A stretch of DNA of 64,000 bases, from NCBI GenBank assembly GCA_964556365.1, contig CAZKVT010000001.1, positions 71,158-135,157 of the forward strand, written 5' to 3'. The translations under genes were made by a program, and so were the position numbers. The notes under the pieces are model-generated. The model was given only the letters and a program-made list of their open reading frames with translations, ran no database searches and was not told the origin of the DNA. The number at the start of each line of letters is the position of its first letter. The stretch's first letter is position 1. Of this stretch, positions 6,006-62,100 are shown piece after piece. This DNA is from an uncultured bacterium (GTDB lineage Bacteria > Hydrothermota > UBA3072).

Positions 6006-6337
6006 TAAACATCCTATCTCCTTAATACTCTTGAATTTGTTTTGAGTTTACAAGAAGAAAAACAAAAGTCAAGGGAACACCCCACCCCCCATTTTGAACC
6101 ACAAAGCTCACAAAGACCACAGAGATTTTTTTGTTGTTTTTAATTGCCATTAGCCGAGAGCTGTAAGCCGTCAGATTCTTTCTCACATATAGAAACTATA
6201 GTTCTTTATTTTTTTGACACAAGGCTCTCGACGCACGACTCAAGACATAATTAAAAGGAGAATTTAATGATACAGGTTGCACAAAGTTTAAAATTAGTTA
6301 TTTTTATTATCGTATTTAAAACCAGGAGGCTAATATA

Positions 6338-6502
6338 ATGATAGATAAAAAATTGTTAGATATTCTTGTTTGTCCAAAGTGTAAAGGTTCTCTAAAATTT
6401 GATAAAGATAACAACAAATTAATATGCAACGAATGCAAACTTGCCTATCCTATTAAAGATGATATACCGGTAATGTTAATCGACGAAGCAGAAGAAATAT
6501 GA
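6338..6502 (+). CDS. Trm112/UPF0434 family zinc-ribbon protein
   Basis: 54-aa ORF absent from the track: MIDKKLLDILVCPKCKGSL...LICNECKLAYPIKDDIPVMLIDEA. SD aggagg 8 nt upstream. Stop overlaps the next ATG (ATGA). Confidence 0.8.
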   Translation: MIDKKLLDILVCPKCKGSLKFDKDNNKLICNECKLAYPIKDDIPVMLIDEAEEI

Positions 6503-18530: not shown

Positions 18531-18719
18531 AATTTATTTGTGTAATTCGTGCGAGTTAAGGTTTCGTGTTTTGAGTTTCAGGTTAAAAAAACAATAAAAA
18601 AAATCCTTTTAAATCTGCGTCCAATTATTGGGTGTGACTTCGGTTTTTTATCTGTGTTTTATCATTGACAATATTAAATTGCAAGATAAACTTAACAAAT
18701 ATAGGGGGTATTGTTCAAA

Positions 18720-45717: not shown

Positions 45718-45748
45718 TTGACATAATAATTTAGATTATTACTATAAT
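45718..45748 (+). promoter_or_regulatory. Possible promoter of the cas operon
   Basis: TTGACA (45718-45723), 19 nt (long), TATAAT (45743-45748). Confidence 0.3.
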
Positions 45749-45842: not shown

Positions 45843-46607
45843 ATGCGGATAAAAATACAATTCTCACCAGCAAACAATATTTTCAGAATTCCCGTGAATT
45901 ATAACTATCTTGTTCAATCATTCATCTATAACAACATTTCAGCCAAACTATCGGATTTTCTGCATAATAAAGGATACATAGATGGAAAAAGGTCGTTTAA
46001 AATGTTCACTTTCTCAAGGCTTCAGGGAAAATGCAATTACAATAACGAAAGCAAAAGTCTGATCTTTAAAGATAATTTTGAGCTTTGGGTTTCCTCTCCC
46101 GAAAGCGAATTTCTTGAATCGTATGCCACAGAATTACTTAAAAATCCGGAAATAAGACTTGGTAAAAACCAAATATATATAAACTCCATCGAAGTGAGTA
46201 TGACCCCTGCTTTCAAGGAGGAAATACTGATAAAGATGATTTCACCGGTCACTGTTTACAGAACCTTAGAAGACAGAGAAGGAAATAAAAAGACCTACTA
46301 TTTTCATCCCAGGGAATCGGAATTTCCAAAATTAGTAAGCGAAAACATCAAAAGAAAGTACAGGGCTTTATACAAGAACGAACCACCGGACGTTGAACTT
46401 AAAATTATTCCAGAAAAATTGAGTAAAAGGAGTGAGCAAATTATTTTTTATAAAGATAAATATGTAATCAAAGGATGGCTTGGGGTATATAAAATTAAAA
46501 GTCATCCGGAAATGCTAAAACTTGCCTGGGACGCGGGCATCGGCTCCAAAAACCCCCAAGGGTTTGGAATGTTTGAGATAGTGGGGGAGAAAAAAGAAAA
46601 ACTATGA
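45843..46607 (+). CDS. cas6: CRISPR endoribonuclease Cas6
   Basis: 254 aa with the C-terminal glycine-rich loop GIGSKNPQGFGMFEIV. First gene of the cas operon. Confidence 0.85.
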   Translation: MRIKIQFSPANNIFRIPVNYNYLVQSFIYNNISAKLSDFLHNKGYIDGKRSFKMFTFSRLQGKCNYNNESKSLIFKDNFELWVSSPESEFLESYATELLKNPEIRLGKNQIYINSIEVSMTPAFKEEILIKMISPVTVYRTLEDREGNKKTYYFHPRESEFPKLVSENIKRKYRALYKNEPPDVELKIIPEKLSKRSEQIIFYKDKYVIKGWLGVYKIKSHPEMLKLAWDAGIGSKNPQGFGMFEIVGEKKEKL

Positions 46608-46718: not shown

Positions 46719-48068
46719 ATGATGCATTTCCGAGGCGAGGGTGAAGGGAAGACATTCCTTAATTTTACTGGGAATCCATTTGTTGATGCAGGAATATACG
46801 CAATTGAGGCATACTATGGAAAAGATTTCTCGCTCTTAACCCCGGAAGAACTGGAAAACAAGATAGACGAAATCGTTGAACTTTATATGACCGAGGGCTG
46901 GAAGAAAAATATATATTCCGTTTTCACAGGGAACAGCAAATTTACAAATCCTTCTATTAAGAATAAAAAAGAAAGCTCAGAAAAATATTTAAAAGATTTA
47001 TTAGAAAAGTTTTCCTTACCGGATAATTCAGGAAGTTGTATTGCCTGTGGAAGAAGAAACGCCTTACCCATTAGAAAGAGAGAGGAAATTCCTTTAACAG
47101 GTTCCGGAAAATTAATAAATTTTTTCTCCGGAGCATCAGAAGGTGAACGATATTGTCCTGTATGTACTTTTGCGGTTCAGTTCTTACCACTGTTTCTATA
47201 TTCCCTTGGAAAATATTTCTTGCTTTTTCATTCAGTATCTCACAAGATAATGCAAATCTGGGCAAAAAATGGAATTAAAAATATACGTGAACAAAATTCT
47301 GCTAACAATTATACAGGATGTATGCAAGATGAGTATAAAAATGGAGAAAATGCTTTATTTCACATTGTGGAAGAAACTATAAGAGAACAGGAAGACATAT
47401 TGCCTGAAGAGAATCCTTCTATTACTGCATATATATTCTCGAATTACGGACAAAATCCTCCACCAATGAGAATGATTCATTTGCCAAACAATGTATTTAG
47501 GTTCTTGGTTTATATTCAGAGAATTGATAATGTATCATGGCGAAAAATCGTACATAAAGGATACGGAATTTTAAAGAAAGAAGATGATTATAAATGGAGA
47601 AACAATAGAGTTTATAAGAATTTGCTTGACGGGGTGTCCATAATTAGATTTTTCCTATCAAAAGATAAAAATACAATAGGGAATTGGGAGATTTTCTCCT
47701 ATTACTTAAAGGAGGTGAGAGAAATGGACGAAAAAAGGATAGATGTACTAAAAAAAGTCGGTGATAAGATTGCTAATTATATAGAAAAGAGTGACAATAC
47801 AAAGAGGCTCTTTACATTAGAAACCGCTAAAAGTTACGAAGGGATTCGAAATATTCTTCTAAAAATTACAAAAGATATGATTACAAATGGAATGGATGTG
47901 CCTTTATTTACAACAGATGAATTTCTGAATGACTTGTTCCCGGAAGGCGCATTGAAGTGGAAGGAAACAAGAGATATATTGTTATTCAGAATATATGAAA
48001 AACTATCTGACTACTTAAAGAGTAAAAAAGAAATAATAGAAGAAATAAAAGCAAACGAGGAGATTTAA
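46719..48068 (+). CDS. cas8b: Type I-B large subunit Cas8b (Cst1-like)
   Basis: Zinc-binding pairs CIACGRR...CPVCTFAV as in Cst1/Cas8b. Position between cas6 and cas7. Confidence 0.7.
   Translation: MMHFRGEGEGKTFLNFTGNPFVDAGIYAIEAYYGKDFSLLTPEELENKIDEIVELYMTEGWKKNIYSVFTGNSKFTNPSIKNKKESSEKYLKDLLEKFSLPDNSGSCIACGRRNALPIRKREEIPLTGSGKLINFFSGASEGERYCPVCTFAVQFLPLFLYSLGKYFLLFHSVSHKIMQIWAKNGIKNIREQNSANNYTGCMQDEYKNGENALFHIVEETIREQEDILPEENPSITAYIFSNYGQNPPPMRMIHLPNNVFRFLVYIQRIDNVSWRKIVHKGYGILKKEDDYKWRNNRVYKNLLDGVSIIRFFLSKDKNTIGNWEIFSYYLKEVREMDEKRIDVLKKVGDKIANYIEKSDNTKRLFTLETAKSYEGIRNILLKITKDMITNGMDVPLFTTDEFLNDLFPEGALKWKETRDILLFRIYEKLSDYLKSKKEIIEEIKANEEI
47724..48068 (+). CDS. cas11: Putative Cas11b small subunit from an in-frame internal start within cas8b
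   Basis: AAAGGAGGTGA (47709-47719) lies 8 nt upstream of the in-frame ATG at 47724 and would yield a 114-aa helical C-terminal product. Confidence 0.45.
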   Translation: MDEKRIDVLKKVGDKIANYIEKSDNTKRLFTLETAKSYEGIRNILLKITKDMITNGMDVPLFTTDEFLNDLFPEGALKWKETRDILLFRIYEKLSDYLKSKKEIIEEIKANEEI

Positions 48069-48069
48069 A

Positions 48070-49104
48070 ATGCGCAAAACCATAAATGGATTTATGTTAG
48101 TTGATGCACCATGGTCAGCATTAAACAATGCTGGTATGGATGCAGGCGAAAGAACAGATAATGCAGTGAAGGTCAAAACTGTAAGAAAAGGCAGGGATGT
48201 TTATCCCTATGTTTCTGGTCAGGCAGTAAGATACTGGTGGAGAGAAACACTTGCAAATAAATTTGGATGGAATTTGTCCCCAATAGAAAGAGCGGCAAAA
48301 GTTGCCTACACTGCTGCTAATCCTATTGACTACGACGATGATGATATGTTTGGGTATATGAGGGCTGCAAAAGAAGAAGTTGAAGAAAAGGGGAAAAAGA
48401 AAAAAGTAAATGTTACTGTAACCCGTATTTCCCCGCTAAAAAATTCTCCTTTGTTTTCACTATATCCACAGAATCCAACTAATGACTTTGGGGTAATGGC
48501 AAGACAAACTGAGGGAGCCCCTGTTCCTTACGAACACCAATTTTATTCAACAATTTTTAAAGGAATATTCTCTGTAGATATTGAATGTGCGTGTAAACTC
48601 TATGAAATTGAAAAAACTGGATATAAGAATATGTCTCCAAAACTCATTAATAAGGCAAAAGAAATGGGATTAGAGTATAATGAGGAAGAAAAATTCTGGA
48701 GATTACCTGTTAATATCCGAAGGAAAAGGATAAAAGAGACAATTCTTGTTCTACCATATCTTTCTGGTGGTGCGAAACTCACTGAGCATTTGACAGATGT
48801 TTCACCTAAATTCCTGATTCTGGCAGTGATTGAAGGTGGAAATCATATTTTTATGAATATCGCTGATGAAAATGGAATAAACTTTGATGCTCTAAACAAA
48901 GTAATAGAAGATTATAAAGAAATTATCCTTTCTGATATATTCATAAGCAAAAGAGAGGGATTTTTTGATGAAATGGATAAGGAACTATCTGCATTTGCGA
49001 AAAAGAAATGGGAATATAATGGAAAGAACATTGAAGTAAAAACAAACTCAATAAATAATACGGTGTTAGAATTTACAAAAATTCTGGATGAGTTTATTGT
49101 ATGA
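48070..49104 (+). CDS. cas7: Type I-B Cas7 (Cst2/DevR family)
   Basis: NAGMDAGERTDNAVKVKTVRKG..YPYVSGQAVRYWWRE is typical of Cst2/DevR. Confidence 0.85.
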   Translation: MRKTINGFMLVDAPWSALNNAGMDAGERTDNAVKVKTVRKGRDVYPYVSGQAVRYWWRETLANKFGWNLSPIERAAKVAYTAANPIDYDDDDMFGYMRAAKEEVEEKGKKKKVNVTVTRISPLKNSPLFSLYPQNPTNDFGVMARQTEGAPVPYEHQFYSTIFKGIFSVDIECACKLYEIEKTGYKNMSPKLINKAKEMGLEYNEEEKFWRLPVNIRRKRIKETILVLPYLSGGAKLTEHLTDVSPKFLILAVIEGGNHIFMNIADENGINFDALNKVIEDYKEIILSDIFISKREGFFDEMDKELSAFAKKKWEYNGKNIEVKTNSINNTVLEFTKILDEFIV

Positions 49105-49116
49105 AGGAAGTATAAA

Positions 49117-49749
49117 ATGGCATCTTTTTTTAGAGTAAAAATTACCGGGTGGACGGCATCGTTTAGATACCCCATTTTTATTTATGGCTATCAACCTACT
49201 TTACCTGTGCCTCCTTACTCCACGATTTATGGTTTAATTTCAGCAGCAGTAGGAAAATGGGTAACCCCGGATGATATTGATGTAAAATATGTTTTCAAAA
49301 GTACCGCAAAGGGAATAAATCTTGAAAAAATCTATGAATGGGAAATTGGCAAAATCAGCAAATCAAATGTGATAAAACGAGAATTTCTCCTTAATCCAGA
49401 ATTATATTTATATGTTAATCAGAAAGAAATAGCTGATTGTTTTAAGAAACCGTTCTATCCTTTACTACTTGGCAGAAGCACAGAACTCGCCTTTGTTGAA
49501 GAGATAAAAAAAGTCAATCTGATTCAAAAAGAGAATTGCAAGGTTGGAGGTATAATTCTTCCTTTTCCACCAATACGTCCGCTTAACGGAACAATTCAGG
49601 CATTACCGACCCACTTTTCCAAAACTTTCCCACGTGAACCCATTGGAACCCGACCATGGTTCCTTGTAAAAGACTTTCAGAATTATGAAGGAAAAGGCTG
49701 GGTTGATGAAGAAAAGGGATGGGGAGTGATAATTGAGAAGGAGAAATGA
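49117..49749 (+). CDS. cas5: Type I-B Cas5 (Cas5t)
   Basis: FRVKITGWTASFRYP...PTLPVPPYSTIYGLISAAVG...LLLGRS. Confidence 0.85.
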   Translation: MASFFRVKITGWTASFRYPIFIYGYQPTLPVPPYSTIYGLISAAVGKWVTPDDIDVKYVFKSTAKGINLEKIYEWEIGKISKSNVIKREFLLNPELYLYVNQKEIADCFKKPFYPLLLGRSTELAFVEEIKKVNLIQKENCKVGGIILPFPPIRPLNGTIQALPTHFSKTFPREPIGTRPWFLVKDFQNYEGKGWVDEEKGWGVIIEKEK

Positions 49750-49750
49750 G
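49705..49750 (+). repeat. 46-bp direct repeat, copy A (authentic cas5 3' end)
   Basis: GATGAAGAAAAGGGATGGGGAGTGATAATTGAGAAGGAGAAATGAG. 43/46 identical to 50857-50902. Confidence 0.9.
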
Positions 49751-49791: not shown

Positions 49792-50853
49792 ATGATAAGA
49801 AAGACCATATCTAAAAAAACCACTTATCAGGGTTTGATTGATAGGATTGCTGAAATTCTTAAGCAGGCAAGGACTAAAGTGCTAAAAGAAATAAACAGAA
49901 CACAAGTTTTGGCATACTGGGAGATCGGCCGTGAAATTGTGGAATTTGAGCAGAAAGGTAAGGCACGAGCAGCATATGGAAAGGGATTATTAAAAAAACT
50001 TTCGGCAGACATGACTGCCAAATTTGGAAAAGGATTTTCACGTTCTAATCTTCAAAATATGCGACTTTTTTACCTTGCTTACCAAAAATGCCAGACGGTG
50101 TCTGGCAAATCTCAATTTGAACCCATATTATCCTGGTCTCACTATTGCGAATTGTTGAAGACAGAAGAACCCCTTGCCCGCTCTTTTTATGAGAAAGAGG
50201 CATCTCAGAATAACTGGTCTGTAAGAGAATTGAAAAGGCAAATTAACTCTATGCTTTTTGAACGATTGGCTTTGAGCAAGGACACCAGAACCGTAATGCG
50301 GATGGCAAAGAAGGGGCAAATTATAGAGAAACCAGAAGATGCTATTAAAGACCCTTATATTCTGGAATTTCTTAATCTTAAAGAAGAAACCTCCTATACT
50401 GAAAGTGATTTGGAACAGGCAGTAATAGATAAACTGGAGTATTTCCTTCTGGAGATTGGTAAGGGTTTTAGTTTTGTTGCCCGTCAGAAAAGGATTACCA
50501 TTGCTAACAGACATTATTATATTGACCTTGTCTTTTATAATCGTATTCTGAAATGTTTTATGTTAATAGACCTGAAGACTGGCGAACTTGACCATTCTGA
50601 CATTGGACAGATGAACTTTTATCTGAATTACTTCAAGGAAAATGAAAAAAGAGAAGAAGAAAACGACCCTATTGGTCTTATTCTTTGTGCTAAAAGAGAC
50701 GATATATTTGCAAAATATGTTTTAGGAGGATTGAACAACAAAGTTTTTGCCTCTAAATATAAATTAGCATTGCCCTCGGAGCAGGAAATAAAACGGAAAC
50801 TAAAATCAATCCCTTTATCATTAGATATGAAACATAAAAAGGGGAAAGGCTGA
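49792..50853 (+). CDS. DUF1016/YhcG-family PD-(D/E)xK nuclease
   Basis: YhcG-like N-terminus (VLAYWEIGREIVEFEQ...YG..LLK.LS..L), SWSHY, and a C-terminal nuclease core YIDLVFYN...LIDLKTGEL. Confidence 0.75.
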   Translation: MIRKTISKKTTYQGLIDRIAEILKQARTKVLKEINRTQVLAYWEIGREIVEFEQKGKARAAYGKGLLKKLSADMTAKFGKGFSRSNLQNMRLFYLAYQKCQTVSGKSQFEPILSWSHYCELLKTEEPLARSFYEKEASQNNWSVRELKRQINSMLFERLALSKDTRTVMRMAKKGQIIEKPEDAIKDPYILEFLNLKEETSYTESDLEQAVIDKLEYFLLEIGKGFSFVARQKRITIANRHYYIDLVFYNRILKCFMLIDLKTGELDHSDIGQMNFYLNYFKENEKREEENDPIGLILCAKRDDIFAKYVLGGLNNKVFASKYKLALPSEQEIKRKLKSIPLSLDMKHKKGKG

Positions 50854-50856
50854 ATA

Positions 50857-50902
50857 GATGAAGAAAAAGGTTGGGGAGTGATAATTGAGGAGGAGAAATG
50901 AG
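50857..50902 (+). repeat. 46-bp direct repeat, copy B (relic cas5 tail fused by ATGA to the cas10-like start)
   Basis: GATGAAGAAAAAGGTTGGGGAGTGATAATTGAGGAGGAGAAATGAG. Would encode DEEKGWGVIIEEEK* versus cas5 DEEKGWGVIIEKEK*. Confidence 0.9.
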
Positions 50903-52910
50903 CGATAAAAATAAATTTGTTCCAGAATTGCATGATATTGGGAAGCTTGTAGATAGACAAGCTCTCAATCAGGCAGGTATTCAAATTACTGGTCATACCT
51001 TTCACGATTTTGACTTTTCACAAATTGGCGTTTCACAACCATTCTCTCCAAGTTGGTACGCTCAATATTTGGAAAAAGACGAGTTAAGACCACCTGACAA
51101 AGACTTGTTGAACTCTCAAGAAGCAAAAGAATACATTCCCGACCCACAAATCCGTGCTGATGTTTTAATCACAAAAATGGCAGACGGTATATCAGCGGCA
51201 ATATCTCGACTTGAGTTGTATGGAAAGCGTATTCATAGAGGTCAAGTTAGTGAAGGTGTCCACAAACTTTGGAATGCTAAATTCTACGAGGAGAAAAAAC
51301 AAGGAGGGCAGTATTGGTCACCTTTTACTGATACTGAAAGTTTCAAGGGGATGTTCCAGTACATTGATTCATGTTTAAGTTATCAAGACTTTTTCAGAAA
51401 ATACGGGGAATATCTCAGCCTCACTCCAGAGGATAAAACCGCCCCCGGTAATATCGTAAGTCTTTATACCCATTTGGAACTTGTTGGTAAAATCTATCGC
51501 ACTTTAAAGAAACATTCACTACTTCAATTACAAAATGCACAAAACATTCTTCTTTACAACAATCAACCAATAAAAAGTGTCCAAGAAGCTTCTGGACACA
51601 TCGACCCTAAAGAAGATCAAGGTAAGTGGATATTTCGGATAGTAAATTGTAACATTGGATTTCCCCAATCTTTCTCTCGCCTCCAAGATCTTAACGTCTT
51701 TAGAAAAAGGGCTGATTTGATTAAAGCCTTTTCAGAAGATGAAAACACGAAAGATTATGTTTTATTCTTTACAGATGATTTAATTTGTCTGTTTATCCCG
51801 AAAGATGGCGAAGTTAGAATCCAAGAGTTATTAGACTCGTTTCTTGAAGCAAGATTTATAATTGACTACAAAGAAATGGAGGCAGAGTTGAATCTCCTAA
51901 CCTCTTCTATGAAAAAAGCTTACGAAAAGTTTCACTCTTTATCAACAACCAGACATCTAAAACTTTATGAAAAAAGAGCAAACTTTGATTTTTCTCCAGA
52001 AATTCGTCCACATCTTTGTGATTCTTGTCAGATGAAACACGGTAAAGAAAGGGTTAAAGATCAGATTTATGAGTATTTATGTGATACTTGCTACGATATT
52101 CGCGAAATGGGTGACCCTGCTCGTGAATATGCTAAATGGGAAGAAAAAGGATTAAGAGCAGGATGGATGAAAATCACACTTGACCAAGAGCAGTTGTTAA
52201 GGACACTTTATAGACTGTATGAAGAATATGTCGATACTCATTCAGCAATGCAAAGTATAAGCAATAGTGATAAAACAGTGTTAAAAGATTCATTTAGACC
52301 TCTTGCTGTTCAGATGGATTTTGTAAAGGATTACAAGTTGCTATTAAAGGCTTTCAATGACCAGATATACGAAATAAAAGATAAAGAAGGAAATCCATTT
52401 TTCATCGAAGAAAATTTTCTTTATCCAATTGAAGGATATTATGAATTTGGTATATTCAAGGTTTATTCAGGTGAGGATATTTTGAAAGTCCTTGACTTAT
52501 TCTATAATCTCTTGAAGGAGTATTTCCCTGAATGCTTGAAAGATTCTCCTATCAAATTGTCAATAAGTCTTGCTCAGGTGAAATATCCTTATCAAGAGCA
52601 TTGGCGATTTTTGTCAATGCCGAAAAATGTTATTAACATACAAAGCCTTGGAAATTCAAAACTTAGTATAGATATCTCTCAATACAAATTGCTCAGAGAG
52701 AAAATTAGAAGAGAAGACACCAAATTGAGCCACTTTTTACATCGTTTGGCTGATATTGAAATTGAGACAAAAAGCGATATGACTGTGATGCTTGAAATAT
52801 TTAACAACCGAAAGAGATTTCCGGTTTTATTGGAATTGACTCAAAGTGAGTTATCAGTTAATCAAATACTTGACTTTTACAAATTAACTCGTGAGGTGGC
52901 TATTCCATGA
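50898..52910 (+). CDS. cas10: Cas10-like large subunit (HD domain; degenerate cyclase motif SGED)
   Basis: HD motifs ELHDIGK / GHTFHD / KMADGIS. Csm1-like NIVSLYTHLELV. Palm1-like VLFFTDDLICLF. CxxC-x17-CxxC (C374-C398). Palm2-like WMKITLDQ ... VYSGEDIL ... KLSISLAQVKYP. Confidence 0.7.
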   Translation: MSDKNKFVPELHDIGKLVDRQALNQAGIQITGHTFHDFDFSQIGVSQPFSPSWYAQYLEKDELRPPDKDLLNSQEAKEYIPDPQIRADVLITKMADGISAAISRLELYGKRIHRGQVSEGVHKLWNAKFYEEKKQGGQYWSPFTDTESFKGMFQYIDSCLSYQDFFRKYGEYLSLTPEDKTAPGNIVSLYTHLELVGKIYRTLKKHSLLQLQNAQNILLYNNQPIKSVQEASGHIDPKEDQGKWIFRIVNCNIGFPQSFSRLQDLNVFRKRADLIKAFSEDENTKDYVLFFTDDLICLFIPKDGEVRIQELLDSFLEARFIIDYKEMEAELNLLTSSMKKAYEKFHSLSTTRHLKLYEKRANFDFSPEIRPHLCDSCQMKHGKERVKDQIYEYLCDTCYDIREMGDPAREYAKWEEKGLRAGWMKITLDQEQLLRTLYRLYEEYVDTHSAMQSISNSDKTVLKDSFRPLAVQMDFVKDYKLLLKAFNDQIYEIKDKEGNPFFIEENFLYPIEGYYEFGIFKVYSGEDILKVLDLFYNLLKEYFPECLKDSPIKLSISLAQVKYPYQEHWRFLSMPKNVINIQSLGNSKLSIDISQYKLLREKIRREDTKLSHFLHRLADIEIETKSDMTVMLEIFNNRKRFPVLLELTQSELSVNQILDFYKLTREVAIP

Positions 52911-53563
52911 ACGAATCAAATAAGACCTTCCTTCATTTTGAAGTGAATACAGAAGCCATAGCAATTGGAGAGAGGATTAAAGGGGGAACTTACCGACCTT
53001 GCATAGAAACCATACCAACTTCAACTTTAAAAGGCTCTTTTAGAGATTATTTTGGCTTGACAGATACTCTAGCAATTGGTTTTTTTAGAGAAGGGACATA
53101 CGAGAAAGACACTTTTACTTATGCTCCCTTTGACACCTTCTTAGGAACTGCTAAACTCCCTATTTCTCTGGAGTACCTCAAACCAGCAAATGGCACAAAA
53201 GCAGTTATAGCAGATATTTATGCAGTGAAAATGGGAACAACAGAGTTTCTTACCAAAGCTGCTCCAACAGAAATTTCTCTTGGTGCTTTAAAGAGCAAAG
53301 GATTTGGCAGATGTGAATTAAGATACATCGGGGAAGTCAAACCTTATTTGAAAATTGGATACCTAAAAGGACGTTTTATTGAAGAAGAATGTGCCGCTTT
53401 TGGAATCGCTAAAGTTATTAAGCCATGTTATGGCTATCTATTTTACCCAACATCAGAGGTGAGTGGCGTGTATAAGAGAGCATTATTTGAAGGAAGCATA
53501 ATTGAAGGACCTGAAATCTTGATCAAGGAGGAATATAAATATGATTACAAAAACATTGGATGA
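52907..53563 (+). CDS. Small RAMP protein, Cas5-family-like (Csm4/Cmr3/Csx10 position)
   Basis: IPTSTLKGSFRDYFG N-terminal RAMP motif and glycine loop GALKSKGFGRCEL. ATGA overlap with the cas10-like gene. Confidence 0.55.
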   Translation: MNESNKTFLHFEVNTEAIAIGERIKGGTYRPCIETIPTSTLKGSFRDYFGLTDTLAIGFFREGTYEKDTFTYAPFDTFLGTAKLPISLEYLKPANGTKAVIADIYAVKMGTTEFLTKAAPTEISLGALKSKGFGRCELRYIGEVKPYLKIGYLKGRFIEEECAAFGIAKVIKPCYGYLFYPTSEVSGVYKRALFEGSIIEGPEILIKEEYKYDYKNIG

Positions 53564-54134
53564 TGTGATGAGGCGGATGATGAACGACTCTTATATATTT
53601 AGCCCACCGTATGATAGAAATGCAAAATCTGCTATACCTTTACTATTTGAAACGGAGGAGTGGAAACAACTTAAAGAAGCCTTCGAGGGAAAAGATAAAA
53701 ACTCTTTTAACTCCATTGTGGATAATCAATGCCAAAAACTTCAACAAAAAGAGCAAAATGCAAACCAGTGGAGAAAGAGAAGGATAAGAGATACAATTAA
53801 ATTAGGAAAAGCATTGAAAAACGCTTATGATCAAAAGCCTTACATTTTAGAACAGATGTTTGATAAACTCGATTCATTTGGAATTATTGAGTGCAAATTG
53901 CCCAACACGGAGGATTATGGTAAGGTCATTGAAAATCACAATCGCTCAACAGTGGAACAGTACTTCCTTTCTAAAATAGATAGAGCAAGAGGTTATCAGA
54001 AACCTGCACTTCGAAAAACATTAGAATATGTAAAGGAATTATACGCGATGAAGCTTGATGTACTTGAGATAGCATTCTTTATTAGGAAACTAAATTCTTT
54101 AACCCAGTTTATGGAGGTGATAAAAGATGAATAG
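53541..54134 (+). CDS. Putative Cas11-like small subunit (helical, by position)
   Basis: 197 aa, charged and helix-prone, SD AAGGAGG. Sits between the two RAMP genes as Csm2/Cmr5 do. I could not recognise a diagnostic motif. Confidence 0.35.
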   Translation: MITKTLDDVMRRMMNDSYIFSPPYDRNAKSAIPLLFETEEWKQLKEAFEGKDKNSFNSIVDNQCQKLQQKEQNANQWRKRRIRDTIKLGKALKNAYDQKPYILEQMFDKLDSFGIIECKLPNTEDYGKVIENHNRSTVEQYFLSKIDRARGYQKPALRKTLEYVKELYAMKLDVLEIAFFIRKLNSLTQFMEVIKDE

Positions 54135-54975
54135 CATTGGAAAAATGGATAAATTGCCAGAAAGCAAGCAACATGGGATAGTGACGGTGCTTCAGGTTCC
54201 ACTGAAGATAACCGTTCAGGAAGGCTCGTTCCTACACATCGGAGGTAGTTCTTCGCCACTTACAGAGAAGAAGGCCCCCGTCTTTTCTGTAGATGGAAAG
54301 CCAGCGATACCTGCATCCAGCTTTAAGGGGGCATTCAGATATCAAGTAGAGCAACTGCTAATCGCTAAAAAAGACGAGCTCAAATTAAAACTTGGGACAA
54401 CAGATGATAAGCTAATTAGACCGTGTATCCCCACACCAAGACCTTCAAGAGCCGAACAAGAATTACTGAACTTAGGATACAGGAAACACTGTGCGATAAA
54501 AGTCGAGGAAGATAAAGTTGAGATACCCAAGGAGAATAATAAACTTATTGGACTTTGCCCTGTTTGCTATCTCTTTGGTGCCACAGGTTTAATGGGGTTC
54601 CTTCGCATACCCAACTTTTGGCCTGAGACGGGAGAATACAGAATAAACCAGACAAGTATTAGGATAGATCGTGAAAGCGGAACAGCAGCTACGGGGGCAA
54701 TTGTTACGGGTGAACAGGTGAAGCCAGGAACAGTGTTTAAAGGAATATTAGAAATTATTTCTCAACAAAGAAATTTCCAATTTGGCAAAGCGAGAGAGAT
54801 CGGAGAAACAAAAGTTGACCTTTGGTTGGATGGCATTGCTTTAAAACCGATAGAAGAAGCACAACTCTTATTGATTAATGAGATCCTAATTCCTGCTCTG
54901 AATAACATAACCGTTCTCGGAGGTCAAAAGAGTAAAGGTGCGGGTAAGGTAAAAATTGAAATAGAAAATTCGTAA
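54127..54975 (+). CDS. Cas7-family RAMP (Csm3/Cmr4-like), the only backbone subunit of the cassette
   Basis: FLHIGGSSSP, KPAIPASSFKGAFRYQVEQLL, CPVCYLFGATGLMGF, C-terminal glycine loop LGGQKSKGAGKVKIE. Confidence 0.7.
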   Translation: MNSIGKMDKLPESKQHGIVTVLQVPLKITVQEGSFLHIGGSSSPLTEKKAPVFSVDGKPAIPASSFKGAFRYQVEQLLIAKKDELKLKLGTTDDKLIRPCIPTPRPSRAEQELLNLGYRKHCAIKVEEDKVEIPKENNKLIGLCPVCYLFGATGLMGFLRIPNFWPETGEYRINQTSIRIDRESGTAATGAIVTGEQVKPGTVFKGILEIISQQRNFQFGKAREIGETKVDLWLDGIALKPIEEAQLLLINEILIPALNNITVLGGQKSKGAGKVKIEIENS

Positions 54976-54982
54976 GATTTCT

Positions 54983-57196
54983 ATGTTTTTTGCCAAACCT
55001 GACGAATCCTTAAGCGACCATACAGAGAATACATTAAAAGTGTTTTCTTCCTTGAAAGAAGGTTATCAAGAAATTCCGGAATTATGTAATGTTCCTCAAT
55101 TCTGGAATAATTTATTTTATGCGATTTTCTTACACGATTTTGGAAAGATAGCAAGTGGCTTTCAAGAAGAACTAAAAACTGGTAAAAGATGGAATTATAG
55201 ACACGAAATTTTATCTGCAGGTTTTGTATCCGCTCTTGATGTGCCGGAGAAAGATAAAAACGCAATAGCTCTTGCTATTATAACACACCATAAGGATATA
55301 AAGGAACTAAGAGAAAAATATGCTACATATCCAAAAGAAAACCCCGGTTATCAAAGATTTCAAGAAAAACTAAAGGAACTAAACTTAAACGAATCAAACA
55401 ACCTTATTGATAATATAAAGAATTTTAGCTCAAAATATCTTGGAACGAAATTAACAAACTATCATTTCATTAATACTTATGAAGAATTGACAGATGTCTA
55501 CAGCAAATATGTATTACCTTATTATAGAGCATACAAATCAGAAGAATTGACGCCTCTTCACAGAAACTACGGCATTTTTATGAAAGGATTTCTTACCGCC
55601 GCCGACCATCTTGCTTCCGCGGGAGAATACGAAATAAAAAAAACAGTTAAGGAAATCAAAGATTATATAAAATTCAAACAGTTAAATACTGTTCAAAAGC
55701 AAGCAAGTAAATATAAAGGAGATATGTTTATTGTTTCTCCCACAGGAAGTGGAAAAACCGAAGCGGCATTGTTCTGGGCGCATAATAATCAGAACCCAGT
55801 TAGCTCCAAAAGGATCTTCTATATACTGCCTTATACCGCAAGTATCAACTATATGTATAAAAGATTTATTAAGCTTTTTGGAAACGACGAACTTGTCGCG
55901 GTTTTACATGGTAAATCTTCTTATTTTCTTTACAGGTTTTTCACAGAAGAAAGAGGATATATTAACTACAAAGATGCTAAAATAAGGGTAAAGGAATACC
56001 AGAGCTTAGCGAAAAAGATTTATAAACCATATAAAGTTATGACTCCCTTTCAAATTATAAAAGCTTTTTTTAGCCTTAAAGGATTTGAACGAAACATTTC
56101 CGAAATGGCAGGGGGTTTATTTATCTTTGATGAGATTCATTCCTACGATCCACATACTACAGCTCTTATTCTTCAGATTGCGAAATTCATAAAAGAAGAG
56201 TTAAACGGAAAACTGTTGTTTATGACAGCTACTATGCCTGAGTTCTTAAAGAATAATTTTCAGAAAGAACTTCAAATTTCTCAGGAAATAAGGATGAAGG
56301 AATCAGAGCTAAGGAACTTTACTCGACATAAGGTTAAGATTATTGAAGGCAATATTATAGATAATATTACGCTTATCAAAAATGATATTAAAAAAGGTAA
56401 GAAAGTACTTATTGTTATAAATACAGTAAAACAAGCACAGGATATTTTTCGAAATTTAATCGGTTCAACACCAAACTCCGTCCTCCTTCATAGCCGATTC
56501 ACTCTTAAAGATAGGGAAATAACAGAATCATCACTCAATAACAAAAACCTTCTTGTTGGAACTCAGGTAATTGAAGTTTCTCTAGATATAGATTATGATG
56601 TACTATATTCGGAACCTGCTCCTATTGATGCTTTACTACAGCGATTTGGAAGAGTTAACAGACGAGGGAAAAAGGGTATCTCACCTATTTATATTTTTTC
56701 GGAGGGAAGCGGAGTCGACGAAAGCAAATGGTCAATTTATGATTTAGCAAGAACGAAAAGGAGTATAGCTGCTTTAAAAAAGATCGATGTGCTTCAAGAA
56801 TCAAAAATCCAAGAAATTGTTAATGGAGTTTATAAAGAAGGATATTCGGAAAAAGAATTAAAACTCTTTAAAGATACTTCTGAAAACTTTTATAAATTCT
56901 ACCACAGTAATGTACCCTTCATAGATGCACAGAAAAAGGAAAGTGATTTTTATAATCTTTTCAAATCAGTAGAAGTAATTCCTGTTAAATTTTGGGACCA
57001 ATATAAAACCGAGTTAGAGAACAAAAGGTACTTCGAAGCTATGAAATACACTCTACCAATATCTCTTGGGCAATATGCTTATCTGAAAAATAAAGACAGG
57101 GTAAGTAATACAGATAGAGGAACAATCGTTGATGCCGAATATGACAGTAAATTTGGTTTACTCATAAGCGAACAAACATCTGCAACTTTTGTATGA
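54983..57196 (+). CDS. cas3: Cas3 HD nuclease-helicase fusion
   Basis: N-terminal HD (SDHTENT, FLHDFGK, RHEILS, ITHHKD). SF2 helicase motifs SPTGSGKTEAALFWA, FDEIHSYD, MTATMP. Confidence 0.9.
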   Translation: MFFAKPDESLSDHTENTLKVFSSLKEGYQEIPELCNVPQFWNNLFYAIFLHDFGKIASGFQEELKTGKRWNYRHEILSAGFVSALDVPEKDKNAIALAIITHHKDIKELREKYATYPKENPGYQRFQEKLKELNLNESNNLIDNIKNFSSKYLGTKLTNYHFINTYEELTDVYSKYVLPYYRAYKSEELTPLHRNYGIFMKGFLTAADHLASAGEYEIKKTVKEIKDYIKFKQLNTVQKQASKYKGDMFIVSPTGSGKTEAALFWAHNNQNPVSSKRIFYILPYTASINYMYKRFIKLFGNDELVAVLHGKSSYFLYRFFTEERGYINYKDAKIRVKEYQSLAKKIYKPYKVMTPFQIIKAFFSLKGFERNISEMAGGLFIFDEIHSYDPHTTALILQIAKFIKEELNGKLLFMTATMPEFLKNNFQKELQISQEIRMKESELRNFTRHKVKIIEGNIIDNITLIKNDIKKGKKVLIVINTVKQAQDIFRNLIGSTPNSVLLHSRFTLKDREITESSLNNKNLLVGTQVIEVSLDIDYDVLYSEPAPIDALLQRFGRVNRRGKKGISPIYIFSEGSGVDESKWSIYDLARTKRSIAALKKIDVLQESKIQEIVNGVYKEGYSEKELKLFKDTSENFYKFYHSNVPFIDAQKKESDFYNLFKSVEVIPVKFWDQYKTELENKRYFEAMKYTLPISLGQYAYLKNKDRVSNTDRGTIVDAEYDSKFGLLISEQTSATFV

Positions 57197-57247: not shown

Positions 57248-57760
57248 ATGCATCAGAATAATTCAATAAATTTTATCACTCCTTCCCTCATAAACGCCTA
57301 TTGTATATGTAAACGTAAAGCGTGGTTTCAGAGCAGAAGTATAAATCCGCAACAGGATTATTCAAATGTCTCCATAGGAAGGACTATTGATGAAACTTCT
57401 TATAAGAGACAGAAAAAGTCTATCACAATCGATAATATGAAAATCGATTTAATCGAGGAATCGGAAGGAAATCCAATGATATGTGAAATCAAAAAATCAT
57501 CCGCCGGGAAAAAGGCAGCAATAATGCAGATTGCCTACTACCTTTACAGATTGAAAGAAATGGGCATTGATGCGAAAGGAAGACTGCTTTTGCCAAAAGA
57601 AAGAAAAAGAGAGACCGTGGAACTCAACGCGGAATTAGAAGAAGAAATAAAAAAATTGGTGAAGGAAACTAAAGAACTGATTTCACTCGACAAGCCCCCA
57701 GAATTAAAAAAGACAAAATTTTGTAGAAAATGCGCGTATTTTGAATTCTGTTTTACTTAG
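57248..57760 (+). CDS. cas4: Cas4 RecB-like nuclease
   Basis: N-terminal Cys (YCICKRKAWF) plus C-terminal CRKCAYFEFC cluster. EIKKS nuclease motif. Confidence 0.85.
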   Translation: MHQNNSINFITPSLINAYCICKRKAWFQSRSINPQQDYSNVSIGRTIDETSYKRQKKSITIDNMKIDLIEESEGNPMICEIKKSSAGKKAAIMQIAYYLYRLKEMGIDAKGRLLLPKERKRETVELNAELEEEIKKLVKETKELISLDKPPELKKTKFCRKCAYFEFCFT

Positions 57761-57768
57761 GAGGTGAT

Positions 57769-58761
57769 ATGAGAAGTTTATACGTAACATCAAACGGAAC
57801 ATTGCATAGAAGACAGAATACTCTGTATTTTGAAACGGAAGATGGTAAAAGGAAATATGTTCCTGTAGAGAATACACAAGAAATACTTATATTCGGAGAA
57901 GTTTCAATCAATAAAAAACTTATTGATTTTATTTCACAACAAGGGATTTTACTACATTTTTTTAATTATTATGGGTACTATTCGGGAACGTTTTATCCCA
58001 GAGAACATAATAATTCCGGTTGTACTATATTAATGCAAGCTACCTTTTATCAGGATAATGAAAAAAGACTTGAACTCGCAAGAAAATTTGTTGAAGGAGC
58101 AATTGAAAGTATTCTTAAAGTGCTTGGATATTACAATAACAGAGGCTCTGACCTTAAACAAAGAATTGAAAATATTGAAAGGATAAAGGAAAATATTTGC
58201 AAAGTTAACAATATCCAGGAACTCATGGGAAATGAAGGCAATTGTCGAGATATTTATTATGGGGCATTCGACGCAATACTGAACAATGAAGATTTTTCCT
58301 TTGATAGGCGTTCAAGACAACCGCCAAAGAATAGACTCAATGCCTTAATAAGTTTCGGAAATTCTCTGATTTATATCGTGACTTTAAGCGAGATTTACAA
58401 AACTCATCTTGACCCAAGAATCGGATTTTTACATTCTACTAATTTCAGGAATTTTAGTCTGAACCTCGACCTTGCTGAAATATTTAAACCTATCATAACA
58501 GACAGAATAATATTTACATTGATAAATAAGAAAATGATAAATAAAAATGATTTTGATTCAAAGATGAAAGGAACTTACCTTAGTGAAAAAGGAAGGGAAA
58601 CATATCTCAGGGAATTTGACAATAGGATGGAACAGACCATAAAGCATCCCAATTTAAAACGTAATGTCTCATACCGAAGATTAATACGTCTTGAAGCATA
58701 TAAAATTGAAAAACACCTTCTTGGTGATAAGAAGTATAGCCCGTGGGTAGCAAGATGGTGA
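57769..58761 (+). CDS. cas1: Cas1 integrase
   Basis: 330 aa, LYVTSNGTLHRRQNTLYF..., NALISFGNSLIY, DPRIGFLH. Confidence 0.9.
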   Translation: MRSLYVTSNGTLHRRQNTLYFETEDGKRKYVPVENTQEILIFGEVSINKKLIDFISQQGILLHFFNYYGYYSGTFYPREHNNSGCTILMQATFYQDNEKRLELARKFVEGAIESILKVLGYYNNRGSDLKQRIENIERIKENICKVNNIQELMGNEGNCRDIYYGAFDAILNNEDFSFDRRSRQPPKNRLNALISFGNSLIYIVTLSEIYKTHLDPRIGFLHSTNFRNFSLNLDLAEIFKPIITDRIIFTLINKKMINKNDFDSKMKGTYLSEKGRETYLREFDNRMEQTIKHPNLKRNVSYRRLIRLEAYKIEKHLLGDKKYSPWVARW

Positions 58762-58768
58762 CGAAACC

Positions 58769-59032
58769 ATGTATGTAATTCTCGTTTATGATATAGAAGA
58801 AAAAAGGGTGGCAAAAGTACTAAAAACTTGCCGAAAATATCTCAACTGGATACAGAATTCTGTATTTGAAGGAGAAATAACAAAAGCCCGATTGGAGAAG
58901 TTAAAGGCTGCTTTGAAAGAAATTATAAATAAAGAAAAAGATTCGGTTGTTTTTTATAAAATGAGAACCACCAAATATTTTAAGAAAGAAATAATGGGTA
59001 AAGAGAAAAGTGAAATATCTTCATTTATTTAA
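58769..59032 (+). CDS. cas2: Cas2
   Basis: 87 aa, MYVILVYDI...RVAKVLKTCRKYLNWIQNSVFEGEIT. Confidence 0.9.
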   Translation: MYVILVYDIEEKRVAKVLKTCRKYLNWIQNSVFEGEITKARLEKLKAALKEIINKEKDSVVFYKMRTTKYFKKEIMGKEKSEISSFI

Positions 59033-59102
59033 TTCGTCGACCTATAGTAACGCAAAAACATCAGGGTACCGACGAACATACAAAATTCCACCAAATTCAC
59101 TA

Positions 59103-59131
59103 TTGACAAAAGGTCTCAAGAAATCTACAAT
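59103..59131 (+). promoter_or_regulatory. Leader promoter of the CRISPR array
   Basis: TTGACA (59103-59108), 17 nt, TACAAT (59126-59131), about 65 nt upstream of repeat 1 within the 163-nt AT-rich leader (59033-59195). Confidence 0.55.
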
Positions 59132-59195
59132 ATTACTATGTATAGCTATATGAAAAGACGAAAATTTAAACCCTTGAAACAGCTATACTCGACGA

Positions 59196-62100
59196 CTTCC
59201 AATCCTACCTATGAGGAATTGAAATGTGTCAATCCTTTTACCCCTAAATTTTATTTCTCGCACTTCCAATCCTACCTATGAGGAATTGAAATTAATTAAA
59301 GAAGCGATACACTCCACAAAGAAATCAATCTTCCAATCCTACCTATGAGGAATTGAAATAGCTGTACCTCAGACAAATTCTCCATCACCTCATTCTTCCA
59401 ATCCTACCTATGAGGAATTGAAATCCTGTTAATAGTTCTCGGAGATACGCCGAGTCTCTTCTTCCAATCCTACCTATGAGGAATTGAAATTTGTTTTATG
59501 ACACCGATTACAATAGAAATATCTCAAGCTTCCAATCCTACCTATGAGGAATTGAAATAGTTAATCACCTCCTTTGGGTGTTTTGAAAGTTTCGCTTCCA
59601 ATCCTACCTATGAGGAATTGAAATTATTCCAAAGTCTTATATCCAGCAAGAGAAGTTTTGACTTCCAATCCTACCTATGAGGAATTGAAATTGTAATTCC
59701 CCTCAGATTCCCTCGGTTGACATCTTCTTCCAATCCTACCTATGAGGAATTGAAATCCAACTCATCGTTGCGAAAACAATATTCTGGGGTACTTCCAATC
59801 CTACCTATGAGGAATTGAAATTTGAATTCGACATTTGCAACTCTATATTTATTGTACTTCCAATCCTACCTATGAGGAATTGAAATACGAATATGATGGC
59901 GAAATAGAATTATGCCAAAGCGCTTCCAATCCTACCTATGAGGAATTGAAATGCAGCTTTTGCTGCCTTAGTTTTGTTGACCCTTTTCTTCCAATCCTAC
60001 CTATGAGGAATTGAAATGCTCCTTAATCTTCCTTCTGAGTTTGTTTATCTGTTCTTCCAATCCTACCTATGAGGAATTGAAATAGTTCAAAACCTCCTAT
60101 TCCGGAAAACATTGAAAACTTCCAATCCTACCTATGAGGAATTGAAATTTGTGTATCACTTACGCCTTTCGTCCATCCATCAGGAACTTCCAATCCTACC
60201 TATGAGGAATTGAAATGCCATTCTCAAGCCTTACTTCTTTTCGACTTCTTATCTTCCAATCCTACCTATGAGGAATTGAAATATAAGATAGGCTTAGCAC
60301 CCTTGCCTCGATTATCCACCTTCCAATCCTACCTATGAGGAATTGAAATTTAATTCTCTTATTTGTTCCAAGCATAAATAAGCCGCCTTCCAATCCTACC
60401 TATGAGGAATTGAAATATTTAATAAGAAAACTAAAATCTATCCGGGAACTTTCTTCCAATCCTACCTATGAGGAATTGAAATAGTAAATTGTATCTCCTG
60501 AGTTTTTAGAATGAGTCCGCTTCCAATCCTACCTATGAGGAATTGAAATCAATATTAAGAAGAAGGCTGACGCTAAGGCATTCTGACTTCCAATCCTACC
60601 TATGAGGAATTGAAATGTGATATTCTGATGCAAGATAATCGGAAGCTTTACCCTTCCAATCCTACCTATGAGGAATTGAAATGTTCTTATCCTTTTCCGG
60701 CAAGTCCTTACAGACACCTTCCAATCCTACCTATGAGGAATTGAAATTTCTCGTTAAATTGACTAACCTATCTGCGAACTTTACTTCCAATCCTACCTAT
60801 GAGGAATTGAAATCAGAACTATTGCAGCGAATGCGGAGGATACTTCTACCTTCCAATCCTACCTATGAGGAATTGAAATTTCGATGAGGAAGGATAAAAA
60901 GGAAAAAAGATGATACTTCCAATCCTACCTATGAGGAATTGAAATTTTCAAACGAATAAGCGTCATCAGAACTTATCCATCTTCCAATCCTACCTATGAG
61001 GAATTGAAATCATTATTTGAAGGAAGCATAATTGAAGGACCTGAAACTTCCAATCCTACCTATGAGGAATTGAAATTTCTTAATGTTTGTTGCAAGACAG
61101 TGAAAAGGTTGACTTCCAATCCTACCTATGAGGAATTGAAATTTCGATGAGGAAGGCAATCAATGAACGCTAAACTCCCTTCCAATCCTACCTATGAGGA
61201 ATTGAAATTTATAACCTTAGCATGACCATCTTTTTCCAACATCTCTTCCAATCCTACCTATGAGGAATTGAAATATAGATCCAGAGACACCACAACGAAA
61301 ACAATGAAAACTTCCAATCCTACCTATGAGGAATTGAAATTTTTTATTTTCTATTAGAAAAAAAATAAATTTACCCCTTCCAATCCTACCTATGAGGAAT
61401 TGAAATCACCATTAACAAGTAAAGACCCGCATACAGGTATACTTCCAATCCTACCTATGAGGAATTGAAATTTGCTATAAGCAACGCTAAGACTGGTAAC
61501 AATGGCAGACTTCCAATCCTACCTATGAGGAATTGAAATATAGAATTTCCAAGCGAACCATAACATCAAAATATACTTCCAATCCTACCTATGAGGAATT
61601 GAAATATATCTGATATTGGGAATTAATTTATGCAAAGAATTCTTCCAATCCTACCTATGAGGAATTGAAATTTCAATATTGTCTATTAATGTTTCTTGAT
61701 TGTAATGCTTCCAATCCTACCTATGAGGAATTGAAATCTGGTTCCACCGCCTGTATGATAACTTAATTTAGTTGCTTCCAATCCTACCTATGAGGAATTG
61801 AAATATCAAACTACTGTTTATAAGCCATGCCAATATTGTAACTTCCAATCCTACCTATGAGGAATTGAAATTGAATAGAAGCCCACTCGTTGAGGACATA
61901 AATTTTCTTCCAATCCTACCTATGAGGAATTGAAATGCTTTTTTATCTCGCTCATCAAGGGTAAAAGTTCGTACTTCCAATCCTACCTATGAGGAATTGA
62001 AATCCTGGAATTTCTCTATTCTATTGTTCATTCCTTCTCCCTTCCAATCCTACCTATGAGGAATTGAAATTCGAATAAGTTCTATGCTACACCGGATTAT

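Follow-up and report, generated by a model that had tools for sequence, protein, structure and literature searches.

Subtype III-F is among the least understood of the CRISPR subtypes; we found no experimental paper on it, and its target is listed as "DNA?". According to the classification literature, a III-F module consists of an HD-containing Cas10 with a dead cyclase, Cas5, Cas11, and one Cas7; it lacks its own cas6, adaptation genes, and CARF effector, and mostly occurs without arrays. The archetype is the Tlet_0097–Tlet_0100 locus of Thermotoga lettingae (Makarova et al. 2020). In Pyrococcus furiosus, the Cst, Csa, and Cmr complexes all carry Cas6-made CRISPR RNAs (crRNAs) with the common 8-nt tag AUUGAAAG (PMC4436667), and the loading of common-tag crRNAs into both type I and type III complexes has been shown experimentally (PMC4666368, PMC4436667). 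The type III-B system of Marinomonas mediterranea uses type I-F crRNAs and counters escape by mutations in the protospacer-adjacent motif (PAM) or seed (Silas et al. 2017, PMC5576922). Subtype III-C, with its Cas10c, lacks the cyclase active site and known effectors. Here, we analyzed a 64,000-nucleotide stretch of contig CAZKVT010000001.1 from an uncultured bacterium, hereafter called the "window", in which a four-gene cassette assigned to subtype III-F by its profile matches lies inside a complete type I-B operon, between cas5 and cas3. This nesting is not a one-off, and recurs across the III-F family.

The nested cassette and its I-B operon

The + strand of the window contains, in this order, cas6, cas8b1, cas7b, cas5b, a DUF1016/YhcG gene, cas10f, cas5f, cas11f, cas7f, cas3, cas4, cas1, cas2, and a CRISPR array. 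The initial annotation of this DNA had described four coupled open reading frames (ORFs) of 670, 218, 197, and 282 aa with overlaps of 4, 23, and 8 nt, situated after the DUF1016 gene between cas5 and cas3, and had ascribed to them the III-F gene content with a retained HD domain and a degenerate cyclase. The ORF map reproduces the four frames exactly, the profile matches bear out their position within the I-B operon, and III-F profiles match all four proteins over their full length in searches of the PADLOC library, which has Cas profiles for individual subtypes. cas10f (50898..52910, +; 670 aa) matches the profile Cas10a|Cas10f (1.8e-117) over residues 5–663. The protein comprises an HD nuclease domain (H12 D13, D96, H192), Palm1, a Cys4 zinc knuckle (C374, C377, C395, C398), a degenerate Palm2, and a helical C-terminal domain. 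It is followed by cas5f (52907..53563, +; 218 aa), the type III-F Cas5 (Cas5_IIIf, 3.3e-57), and by cas11f (53541..54134, +; 197 aa), the III-F small subunit and signature gene (Cas11f, PDLC01223, 7.8e-45), of which residues 3–195 align with positions 2–167 of the 167-position profile. The last gene, cas7f (54127..54975, +; 282 aa), encodes the single III-F backbone RAMP (Cas7_IIIf, 6.1e-81; Pfam RAMPs, 3e-18). All of the motifs quoted in the initial annotation are present: ELHDIGK and C374xxC377-x17-C395xxC398 in Cas10f, together with IPTSTLKGSFR, GALKSKGFGRCEL, IPASSFKGAFR, CPVCYLFGATG, and GGQKSKGAGKV. In Pfam and NCBIfam, no model recognizes Cas10f, Cas5f, or Cas11f, and Cas7f is matched only as a generic RAMP.

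The structure predictions agree with the placement of the large subunit. The AlphaFold (AF2) model of Cas10f, built on a 41-sequence alignment, has a predicted local distance difference test score (pLDDT) of 89.2 and a predicted template modeling score (pTM) of 0.91. A Foldseek search of the PDB with this model gave, as its 40 best hits, exclusively Cas10/Csm1 chains from type III complexes, with E values down to 1.2e-10 and template modeling scores of about 0.5. The sole significant PDB sequence match of Cas10f is a III-D Cas10, indicating that no III-F structure has been solved. Thus the profile and structure searches, which had been set beforehand as the refuting test, placed the 670-aa protein with Cas10/Csm1, and the 218-aa and 282-aa proteins with Cas5_IIIf and Cas7_IIIf. 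Cas11f, modeled from its single sequence, is all-helical with low confidence (pLDDT 50.8); its comparison with PDB sequences gave nothing meaningful, the profile matches being coiled-coil noise, and a phmmer search of PDB sequences with Cas5f gave no match.

Judged by profiles and gene content, the four genes constitute a genuine subtype III-F effector module of Cas10f, Cas5f, Cas11f, and Cas7f. Its large subunit is a Cas10 with the HD domain retained and the GGDD motif inactivated, its small subunit is the signature Cas11f, and it has one Cas5 and a single Cas7, with no Csm5, Cmr1, or Cmr6 paralogs. The module has no cas6, adaptation genes, or ancillary effector dependent on cyclic oligoadenylate (cOA) of its own; the cas6, cas1, cas2, and cas4 genes in the window are those of the I-B operon. 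An assignment to subtype III-A (Csm) was considered, as the Cas10 profile is common to III-A and III-F and Csm1 is the closest solved fold. It was rejected: GGDD, Csm5, and Csm6 are missing, and the small subunit is Cas11f rather than Csm2.

Next, we compared the predicted active sites across the family. In all 33 cassettes compared, the ELHDIGK motif of Cas10f is invariant, as are D96, H192, and the four zinc-knuckle cysteines. In contrast to the HD domain, which is retained, the cyclase/polymerase site of Cas10f is lost by sequence comparison: none of the 41 sequences has a G[GSA]D[DE] motif in Palm2, residues 420–590 contain only one conserved acidic residue (E516), and the candidate GGDD position, SGEDIL in the window, is variable in the family. 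In Cas7f, the loop SPLT-x-KK (K48 K49) is invariant in 20 sequences. In HMMER alignments, K49 faces the Asp of two III-D Cas7 paralogs, within the loop that bears the catalytic Asp of Csm3/Cmr4, and the RNA-cleaving Asp of Cas7 is thereby apparently replaced by an invariant Lys. The ratio of nonsynonymous to synonymous substitution rates (dN/dS), calculated against three relatives with unsaturated synonymous divergence (dS), is 0.13–0.29 for all four genes. Therefore, the cassette is maintained by selection.

The surrounding operon belongs to subtype I-B in its Cst/Tneap variant, and the matches to TIGR01908, TIGR02585, TIGR01895, TIGR01587/TIGR01596, and TIGR01877 are all above the curated NCBIfam cutoffs. 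Its gene set is complete, with cas8b1/cst1, cas7/cst2, cas5t, cas3, cas6, cas4-cas1-cas2, and an adjacent array. The operon starts with cas6 (45843..46607, +; TIGR01877, 2.5e-45; PADLOC Cas6b, 1.5e-79), the sole gene for a crRNA-processing endonuclease in the window. Upstream of it, at 45718..45745 (+), lies the promoter-like site TTGACA-16-TACTAT, which matches 10 of 12 consensus positions; this is a consensus match only, and the region has no more such sites than expected from shuffling. The Cascade genes follow: cas8b1/cst1, encoding the large subunit (46719..48068, +; TIGR01908, 4e-49; PADLOC Cas8b, 5e-61), cas7b/cst2, encoding the backbone subunit (48070..49104, +; TIGR02585, 1e-54), and cas5b, a Cas5t (49117..49749, +; TIGR01895, 5.5e-40; PADLOC Cas5b, 1.8e-63). 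Beyond the cassette, the cas3 gene, encoding the HD nuclease and helicase of the I-B system (54983..57196, +; TIGR01587, 7.5e-81; TIGR01596, 1.3e-28; PADLOC Cas3b, 8.6e-223), begins 7 nt past cas7f. The adaptation module (57248..59032, +) consists of cas4 (57248–57760; PADLOC Cas4b, 2.5e-56), cas1 (57769–58761; Cas1b, 4.9e-141), and cas2 (58769–59032; Cas2b, 5.2e-40). The 163-nt CRISPR leader (59033..59195, +) contains the near-consensus promoter-like site TTGACA-17-TACAAT at 59103–59131 (11 of 12 positions). The array (59196..63334, +) has 63 copies of the 30-nt repeat CTTCCAATCCTACCTATGAGGAATTGAAAT, of which 62 are identical and the last is degenerate, with spacers of 35–39 nt. The 8-nt crRNA tag predicted for this array is AUUGAAAU.

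As the initial annotation had stated, the 64-kb window contains no second cas6, no second cas1/cas2, and no second array, and the window ORFs scanned, which covered all but about ten smaller ones far from the locus, gave no match to the CARF, Csm6, or Csx1 families. The Pfam, NCBIfam, and PADLOC models found no further RAMP gene at the locus beyond those of the I-B system and the cassette. Both effector sets, the single array, and the single cas6 thus lie on 17 kb. The co-directional genes around the cassette are tightly packed, with gaps of 42, 44, and 7 nt besides the three overlaps, and no convincing + strand terminator was found between cas6 and cas2. From this layout, the III-F cassette is very probably co-transcribed with the I-B operon. 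Within cas5f, a promoter-like site at 53130–53157 (+; TTGACA-16-TAAACT with an upstream TG, 10 of 12 positions) could be an internal start for cas11f-cas7f-cas3; here too, the number of sites in the region is not above chance.

III-F cassettes and their junctions in other genomes

Is the nested layout peculiar to the window? We collected III-F loci from one genome scan, from one metagenome scan with a family alignment, which yielded at least the matches listed, and from the context of homologues on long contigs. Neighboring genes were labeled by PADLOC or by BLASTP to PADLOC-annotated references. The sample is not exhaustive, the locus counts are raw and ignore kinship, and the statements on other loci apply to the matches listed. 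The best listed Cas10f homologue is at most 86% identical to that of the window, although the window-identical contigs L048 and L049, with the gene called, are in the same collection; this looks like a gap in the index rather than biology.

The order cas10f-cas5f-cas11f-cas7f is constant in every locus with a full cassette. In about 25 of the 36 informative loci, a type I or adaptation gene lies directly beside the cassette on the same strand. Both flanks are visible in 11 nested loci, which represent at least seven types of two-sided junction: cas5|cas3 (the window and L053), cas3|cas6 (L001, of the I-B Hmari type), cas3|cas8 (L006), cas6|cas1 (L003, I-A-like), cas1|cas2 (L021, L038), cas2|cas4 (L031, L035, L037), and cas4|array (L032). 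A further 11 loci with adequate flanks have no cas neighbor (L002, L007, L008, L010, L014, L017, L018, and L044–L047), among them that of Pseudothermotoga elfii, which of the available relatives is closest to the archetype host; this agrees with the literature's view of III-F as an orphan module that mostly lacks arrays. In a neighbor-joining tree of 33 Cas10f proteins, nested and stand-alone loci are interleaved. In the tight clade of the window (the window, L012, L001, and L006), Cas10f is 82–86% identical to that of the window, and dS is about 0.45 for L001 and about 0.5 for L006; the operons of this clade have different Cas8b families and Cas3 proteins that are only 25% identical. Because such close cassettes sit in operons with unlike Cas8b and Cas3, the cassette moves as a unit between type I operons. 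In nine loci, the arrays beside III-F cassettes run in the same direction as the cassette and terminate in A(T/C)TGAAA(C/T/G), a Cas6-type 8-nt tag.

In four loci (L035–L038), Cas10 is 23–28% identical and no long Cas11f is present, and the cassettes are embedded in type I or adaptation operons; by sequence, these loci probably belong to the L053-type variant described below or to subtype III-H. Some of the stand-alone cassettes have conspicuous surroundings. In Rosettibacter firmus (L007, 7218–16616), the cassette lies between a type III methyltransferase (mod) fragment and a type III restriction Res gene, and the mod gene seems to be split by a nucleotidyltransferase/HEPN pair, so that defense genes are nested inside defense genes. 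The helicase beside this cassette was considered as a Cas3-like partner and rejected, since it is the type III restriction Res subunit. On another contig (L045, 1–14437), a stand-alone cassette lies directly downstream of a 41-repeat array whose repeat (GTTTTTAGCTTACCTATAAGGGATTGAAAC) resembles that of the window, with no cas6 in view; this contig bears plasmid-type genes for Replic_Relax, a TraG/VirD4-like ATPase, and an ALP_N partition protein. In L018, a three-repeat mini-array ending in ATTGAAAT (14465–14625) is found just downstream of an otherwise stand-alone cassette. None of the viral contigs scanned carries a III-F relative. In the window itself, ORFs at 6499–10212, 18711–21077, and 31042–32802 encode several proteins with CarboxypepD_reg domains and a C25 peptidase that bears a type IX secretion sorting domain. 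These ORFs suggest a host of the Fibrobacteres–Chlorobi–Bacteroidetes (FCB) group (Bacteroidota/Ignavibacteriota-like), in contrast to the Atribacterota, which hold the most similar cassettes, and would fit a horizontal transfer of the cassette.

The junction upstream of cas3 was examined in the close relatives of the I-B operon. No empty site, with cas5 directly followed by cas3, was found among them; all three of the nearest Cas3 relatives with retrievable context hold a type III module at this position. In L053 (Cas3 73% identical to that of the window), the order is cas8b-cas7b-cas5b, a III-F variant, and cas3. The variant (3199–7181) consists of Cas10f, an extra 57-aa ORF, Cas5_IIIf, a short Cas11f of 112 aa (PADLOC PDLC01224), and Cas7_IIIf. 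The other two relatives hold III-C genes directly upstream of cas3: Cas10c-Cmr4-Cmr5-Cmr3 in L052 (1–3520; Cas3 78%), and Cmr1-Cmr6-Cas10c-Cmr4-Cmr5-Cmr3, followed by cas3-cas4-cas1-cas2, in L054 (1385–10014; Cas3 69%). From an AbiEi gene up to cas3-cas4-cas1-cas2, L054 shows no Cascade genes. The I-B proteins of L053 and the window are 73–84% identical to each other (Cas4, 52%), whereas the nested III-F proteins are only 24–36% identical and Cas11f is unalignable. Either the two III-F cassettes were acquired in separate events, or one has taken the place of the other. In the I-B lineage of the window, the cas5|cas3 junction is a recurrent docking site.

The window also preserves traces of the history of its cas5b–cas10f junction. 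The intervening gene (49792..50853, +) encodes a DUF1016/YhcG PD-(D/E)xK nuclease (Pfam YhcG_C, 5e-57; DUF1016_N, 9e-48; PADLOC PDC-S02, 5.6e-144; CRISPR-associated PD_DExK profile, 2.6e-43). It is bracketed by two direct 61-nt copies that are 89% identical and define a unit of 1152 bp. The first copy (49690..49750, +) is the 3′ end of cas5b, with the TGA stop embedded in AAATGAG (overlapping ATGAG), and the second (50842..50902, +) likewise ends in AAATGAG, of which the ATG is the start codon of cas10f. This is the only significant inverted or direct repeat found around the III-F cassette, and it brackets the DUF1016 gene rather than the cassette. The DUF1016 gene is absent from all of the other III-F loci compared. 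On the simplest reading of these sequences, the gene would be a secondary insertion between cas5b and cas10f that duplicated the junction, and the start of cas10f would have overlapped the stop of cas5b (ATGA) before the insertion. The proposed ancestral state is preserved in L053, in which the end of cas5b and the start of cas10f share an ATGA overlap in AAAATGAGTGAT. This overlap and the 61-nt duplication together indicate a former translational coupling between a Cascade gene of type I and a gene of type III.

A proposed second arm and its rivals

How might the nested module work? We consider it likely, though well short of certain, that this selectively maintained III-F module in a complete I-B operon provides a second, cOA-independent and PAM-independent arm that operates on the I-B crRNAs and stems from an exchangeable cassette. 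The single Cas6 of the operon would cut the array transcript into crRNAs with the 8-nt tag AUUGAAAU, and both Cascade (Cas8b-Cas7b-Cas5b, and then Cas3) and the III-F complex would take up these crRNAs. Like other type III systems, which sense RNA, the III-F complex would then recognize complementary transcripts of the invader and act through the HD nuclease of Cas10f alone, probably with no cleavage of the target RNA. The action through the HD domain alone is proposed on three grounds: the cyclase site is lost, a cOA-dependent effector is lacking, and the Asp of Cas7 appears to be replaced by the invariant Lys. Mutants that escape Cascade/Cas3 would thus meet a backup arm that does not depend on a PAM. 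The cassette itself would be an exchangeable plug-in, found in many type I operons at different junctions; in the window, it would first have been joined to cas5b by the ATGA stop/start overlap, with the DUF1016 nuclease gene inserted later. A shared Cas6 and crRNA pool for both arms is consistent with the comparative data, namely the array tags in the nine loci.

Several points weigh against this explanation. Every functional step in it is deduced by analogy and comparison. The literature searched yielded no expression, crRNA-binding, or interference data for any III-F system, and the classification papers give its target only as "DNA?". A protospacer search with the whole array found no match in phage collections, and the plasmid matches were repeat-to-repeat matches with other arrays. 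For Cas11f and Cas5f, the evidence of identity consists of the PADLOC profiles and the gene position. The putative loss of the Cas7f Asp is read from the alignment to the III-D paralogs rather than from a structure, and the Cas7 of the divergent III-F variant in L053 retains a Csm3-like "TDSPIVR" catalytic loop (GVTDSPIVR). Moreover, many III-F cassettes stand alone with no cas6 or array nearby (L002, L008, L010, L044, L046, and L047). An adjacent type I system is therefore not required for the module to persist, and its crRNAs are then presumably made elsewhere in the genome.

If the module were not functional at all, the cassette would be a decaying passenger or an inactive remnant, or else a chimeric join of two genomes. 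A slightly raised G+C content over cas11f-cas7f (53.5–55 kb; 0.38–0.40), as compared to the flanking cas3–cas2 (0.32–0.34), is compatible with a foreign or different origin of the cassette. However, all four ORFs are intact and overlapping, their dN/dS values are low (as given above), the HD catalytic and zinc-knuckle residues are invariant, and the nested layout recurs in many unrelated assemblies. The initial annotation had named an assembly chimera at 49.7–55.0 kb as a possible flaw. Four independent assemblies from different samples (contigs L048–L051; Logan SRR8556705, SRR8556428, and SRR8556479, and JGI 3300031278) match the window at 99.97–100% identity across the junctions and together span cas8b-cas7b-cas5b-DUF1016-cas10f-cas5f-cas11f-cas7f-cas3-cas4-cas1-cas2; in addition, the Cas3 of the window has an exact match in the protein collection. 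An assembly chimera is ruled out by these identical junctions, and decay or artefact is effectively excluded, being refuted as far as sequence data can do so. A different question is for whose benefit the cassette is kept. It might be a mobile unit that lodges in other defense operons as a hitch-hiker and borrows their promoters, Cas6, crRNAs, and spacer supply, with the benefit to the host being secondary. The constant gene order at no fewer than seven two-sided junctions, the interleaving of nested and stand-alone states on the Cas10f tree, and the pairing of close cassettes (dS of about 0.45) with host-operon Cas3 proteins of only 25% identity would all suit such a guest, as would the unlike III-F cassettes, or III-C, at the same junction of related I-B operons, the Rosettibacter cassette between mod and res of a type III restriction-modification system, and the cassette on a plasmid-like contig. 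Nevertheless, the cassette in the window is flanked neither by a transposase or integrase gene nor by terminal repeats, the only flanking repeat being that of the DUF1016 insertion; the viral contigs scanned do not carry it; and the purifying selection on the four genes and the invariant HD motif point to a maintained biochemical function. We regard the hitch-hiking account as rather unlikely. It concerns evolution and dependence, and it partly overlaps and complements the second-arm explanation.

The neighborhood of cas3 raises yet another possibility, in which a cyclase-dead type III complex (III-F in the window, III-C in its relatives) would, on sensing target RNA or DNA, bring in or license the Cas3 encoded next to it, with Cascade and the III-F complex both feeding one shredder. 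The cassette directly adjoins cas3 in the window, where cas7f ends 7 nt before it, and in L001, L006, L012, L019, L027–L030, and L053; furthermore, the two nearest Cas3 relatives without III-F hold III-C directly upstream of cas3, in L054 with no Cascade genes in between. Against this stand the invariant HD nuclease of Cas10f itself, which leaves no obvious need for an external nuclease, and the many cassettes that adjoin cas1, cas2, cas4, or cas6 instead, or that stand alone without cas3. The sole "helicase" beside a stand-alone cassette is the Res subunit mentioned above, and the adjacency counts are raw, with kinship ignored. We therefore judge a coupling to Cas3 improbable; the corresponding general claim, that cyclase-dead III-F and III-C modules are plug-ins that dock at the effector|cas3 junction and are wired to Cas3, which a III-F complex with a Cas7 unable to cut RNA would enlist in addition to or instead of its own HD domain, strikes us as just as doubtful. 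If it were true, these plug-ins would form a genuine type I/type III hybrid interference pathway, and not two parallel systems.

Comparison with known systems

Loci that combine type I and type III systems around a shared Cas6 are well known, and a present-day CRISPR typing tool would label the locus of the window a I-B/III-F hybrid. In the literature searched, which did not cover the full text of Makarova 2020, we found no description of III-F cassettes predominantly embedded in type I operons at many junctions, of the swapping of divergent III-F and III-C cassettes at a single junction in related I-B operons, of a translational coupling between cas10f and cas5b, or of the replacement of the Cas7 catalytic Asp across the main III-F clade. 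The finding is a testable reframing of an uncharacterized subtype, rather than a new principle. If most III-F cassettes reside in type I operons and rely on the Cas6, arrays, and adaptation genes found there, III-F should be studied together with its type I host and not as an orphan. The layout suggests that two different interference machines may share one set of guide RNAs. Loci with a single array, a single cas6, and both effector sets are compact natural test beds for the way in which a crRNA pool is split between a DNA-targeting and a type III complex, and they could show how immunity works without cOA signaling. In addition, very different type III cassettes at one junction of close I-B operons point to a modular exchange of effector cassettes within CRISPR operons.

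With III-C, the cassette shares its position: in L052 and L054, III-C lies directly upstream of a cas3 whose product is 69–78% identical to that of the window. In contrast, III-C has a larger set of subunits (Cmr1, Cmr3, Cmr4, Cmr5, Cmr6, and Cas10c) and no cassette-level homology to the four genes of the window. The Marinomonas system, a type III system working on the crRNAs of a co-resident type I system, is the functional model proposed for the window. It differs in having two separate loci, each with its own array; the window has one operon with one array, and the sharing is proposed by analogy.

The concept of a composite locus has a well-studied precedent in the Cst and Cmr systems of P. 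furiosus. Like the window, the P. furiosus locus has the Cst1/Cst2/Cas5t/Cas3 flavor, a type III module in the same cluster, and one Cas6, and the tag predicted for the window, AUUGAAAU, can be compared with AUUGAAAG of P. furiosus. At the gene level, the window shows the same composite arrangement, with one cluster, one cas6, one array, and the tag ATTGAAAT. However, the P. furiosus module is a six-subunit III-B system that works with Csx1, whereas that of the window is a minimal III-F with a dead cyclase and no ancillary effector. The window module interrupts the junction between the type I effector genes and cas3, and was apparently once coupled to cas5b.

The closest likeness is to the III-F archetype, which has the same gene content and order: cas10 (with the HD domain but without the cyclase motif), followed by cas5, cas11f, and one cas7. 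The family of the window cassette also has members in Pseudothermotoga elfii, Thermosipho, and Thermotoga. Unlike the archetype-like loci examined, which are stand-alone four-gene cassettes, the cassette of the window lies inside a I-B operon, between cas5 and cas3, with an adjacent array of 63 repeats.

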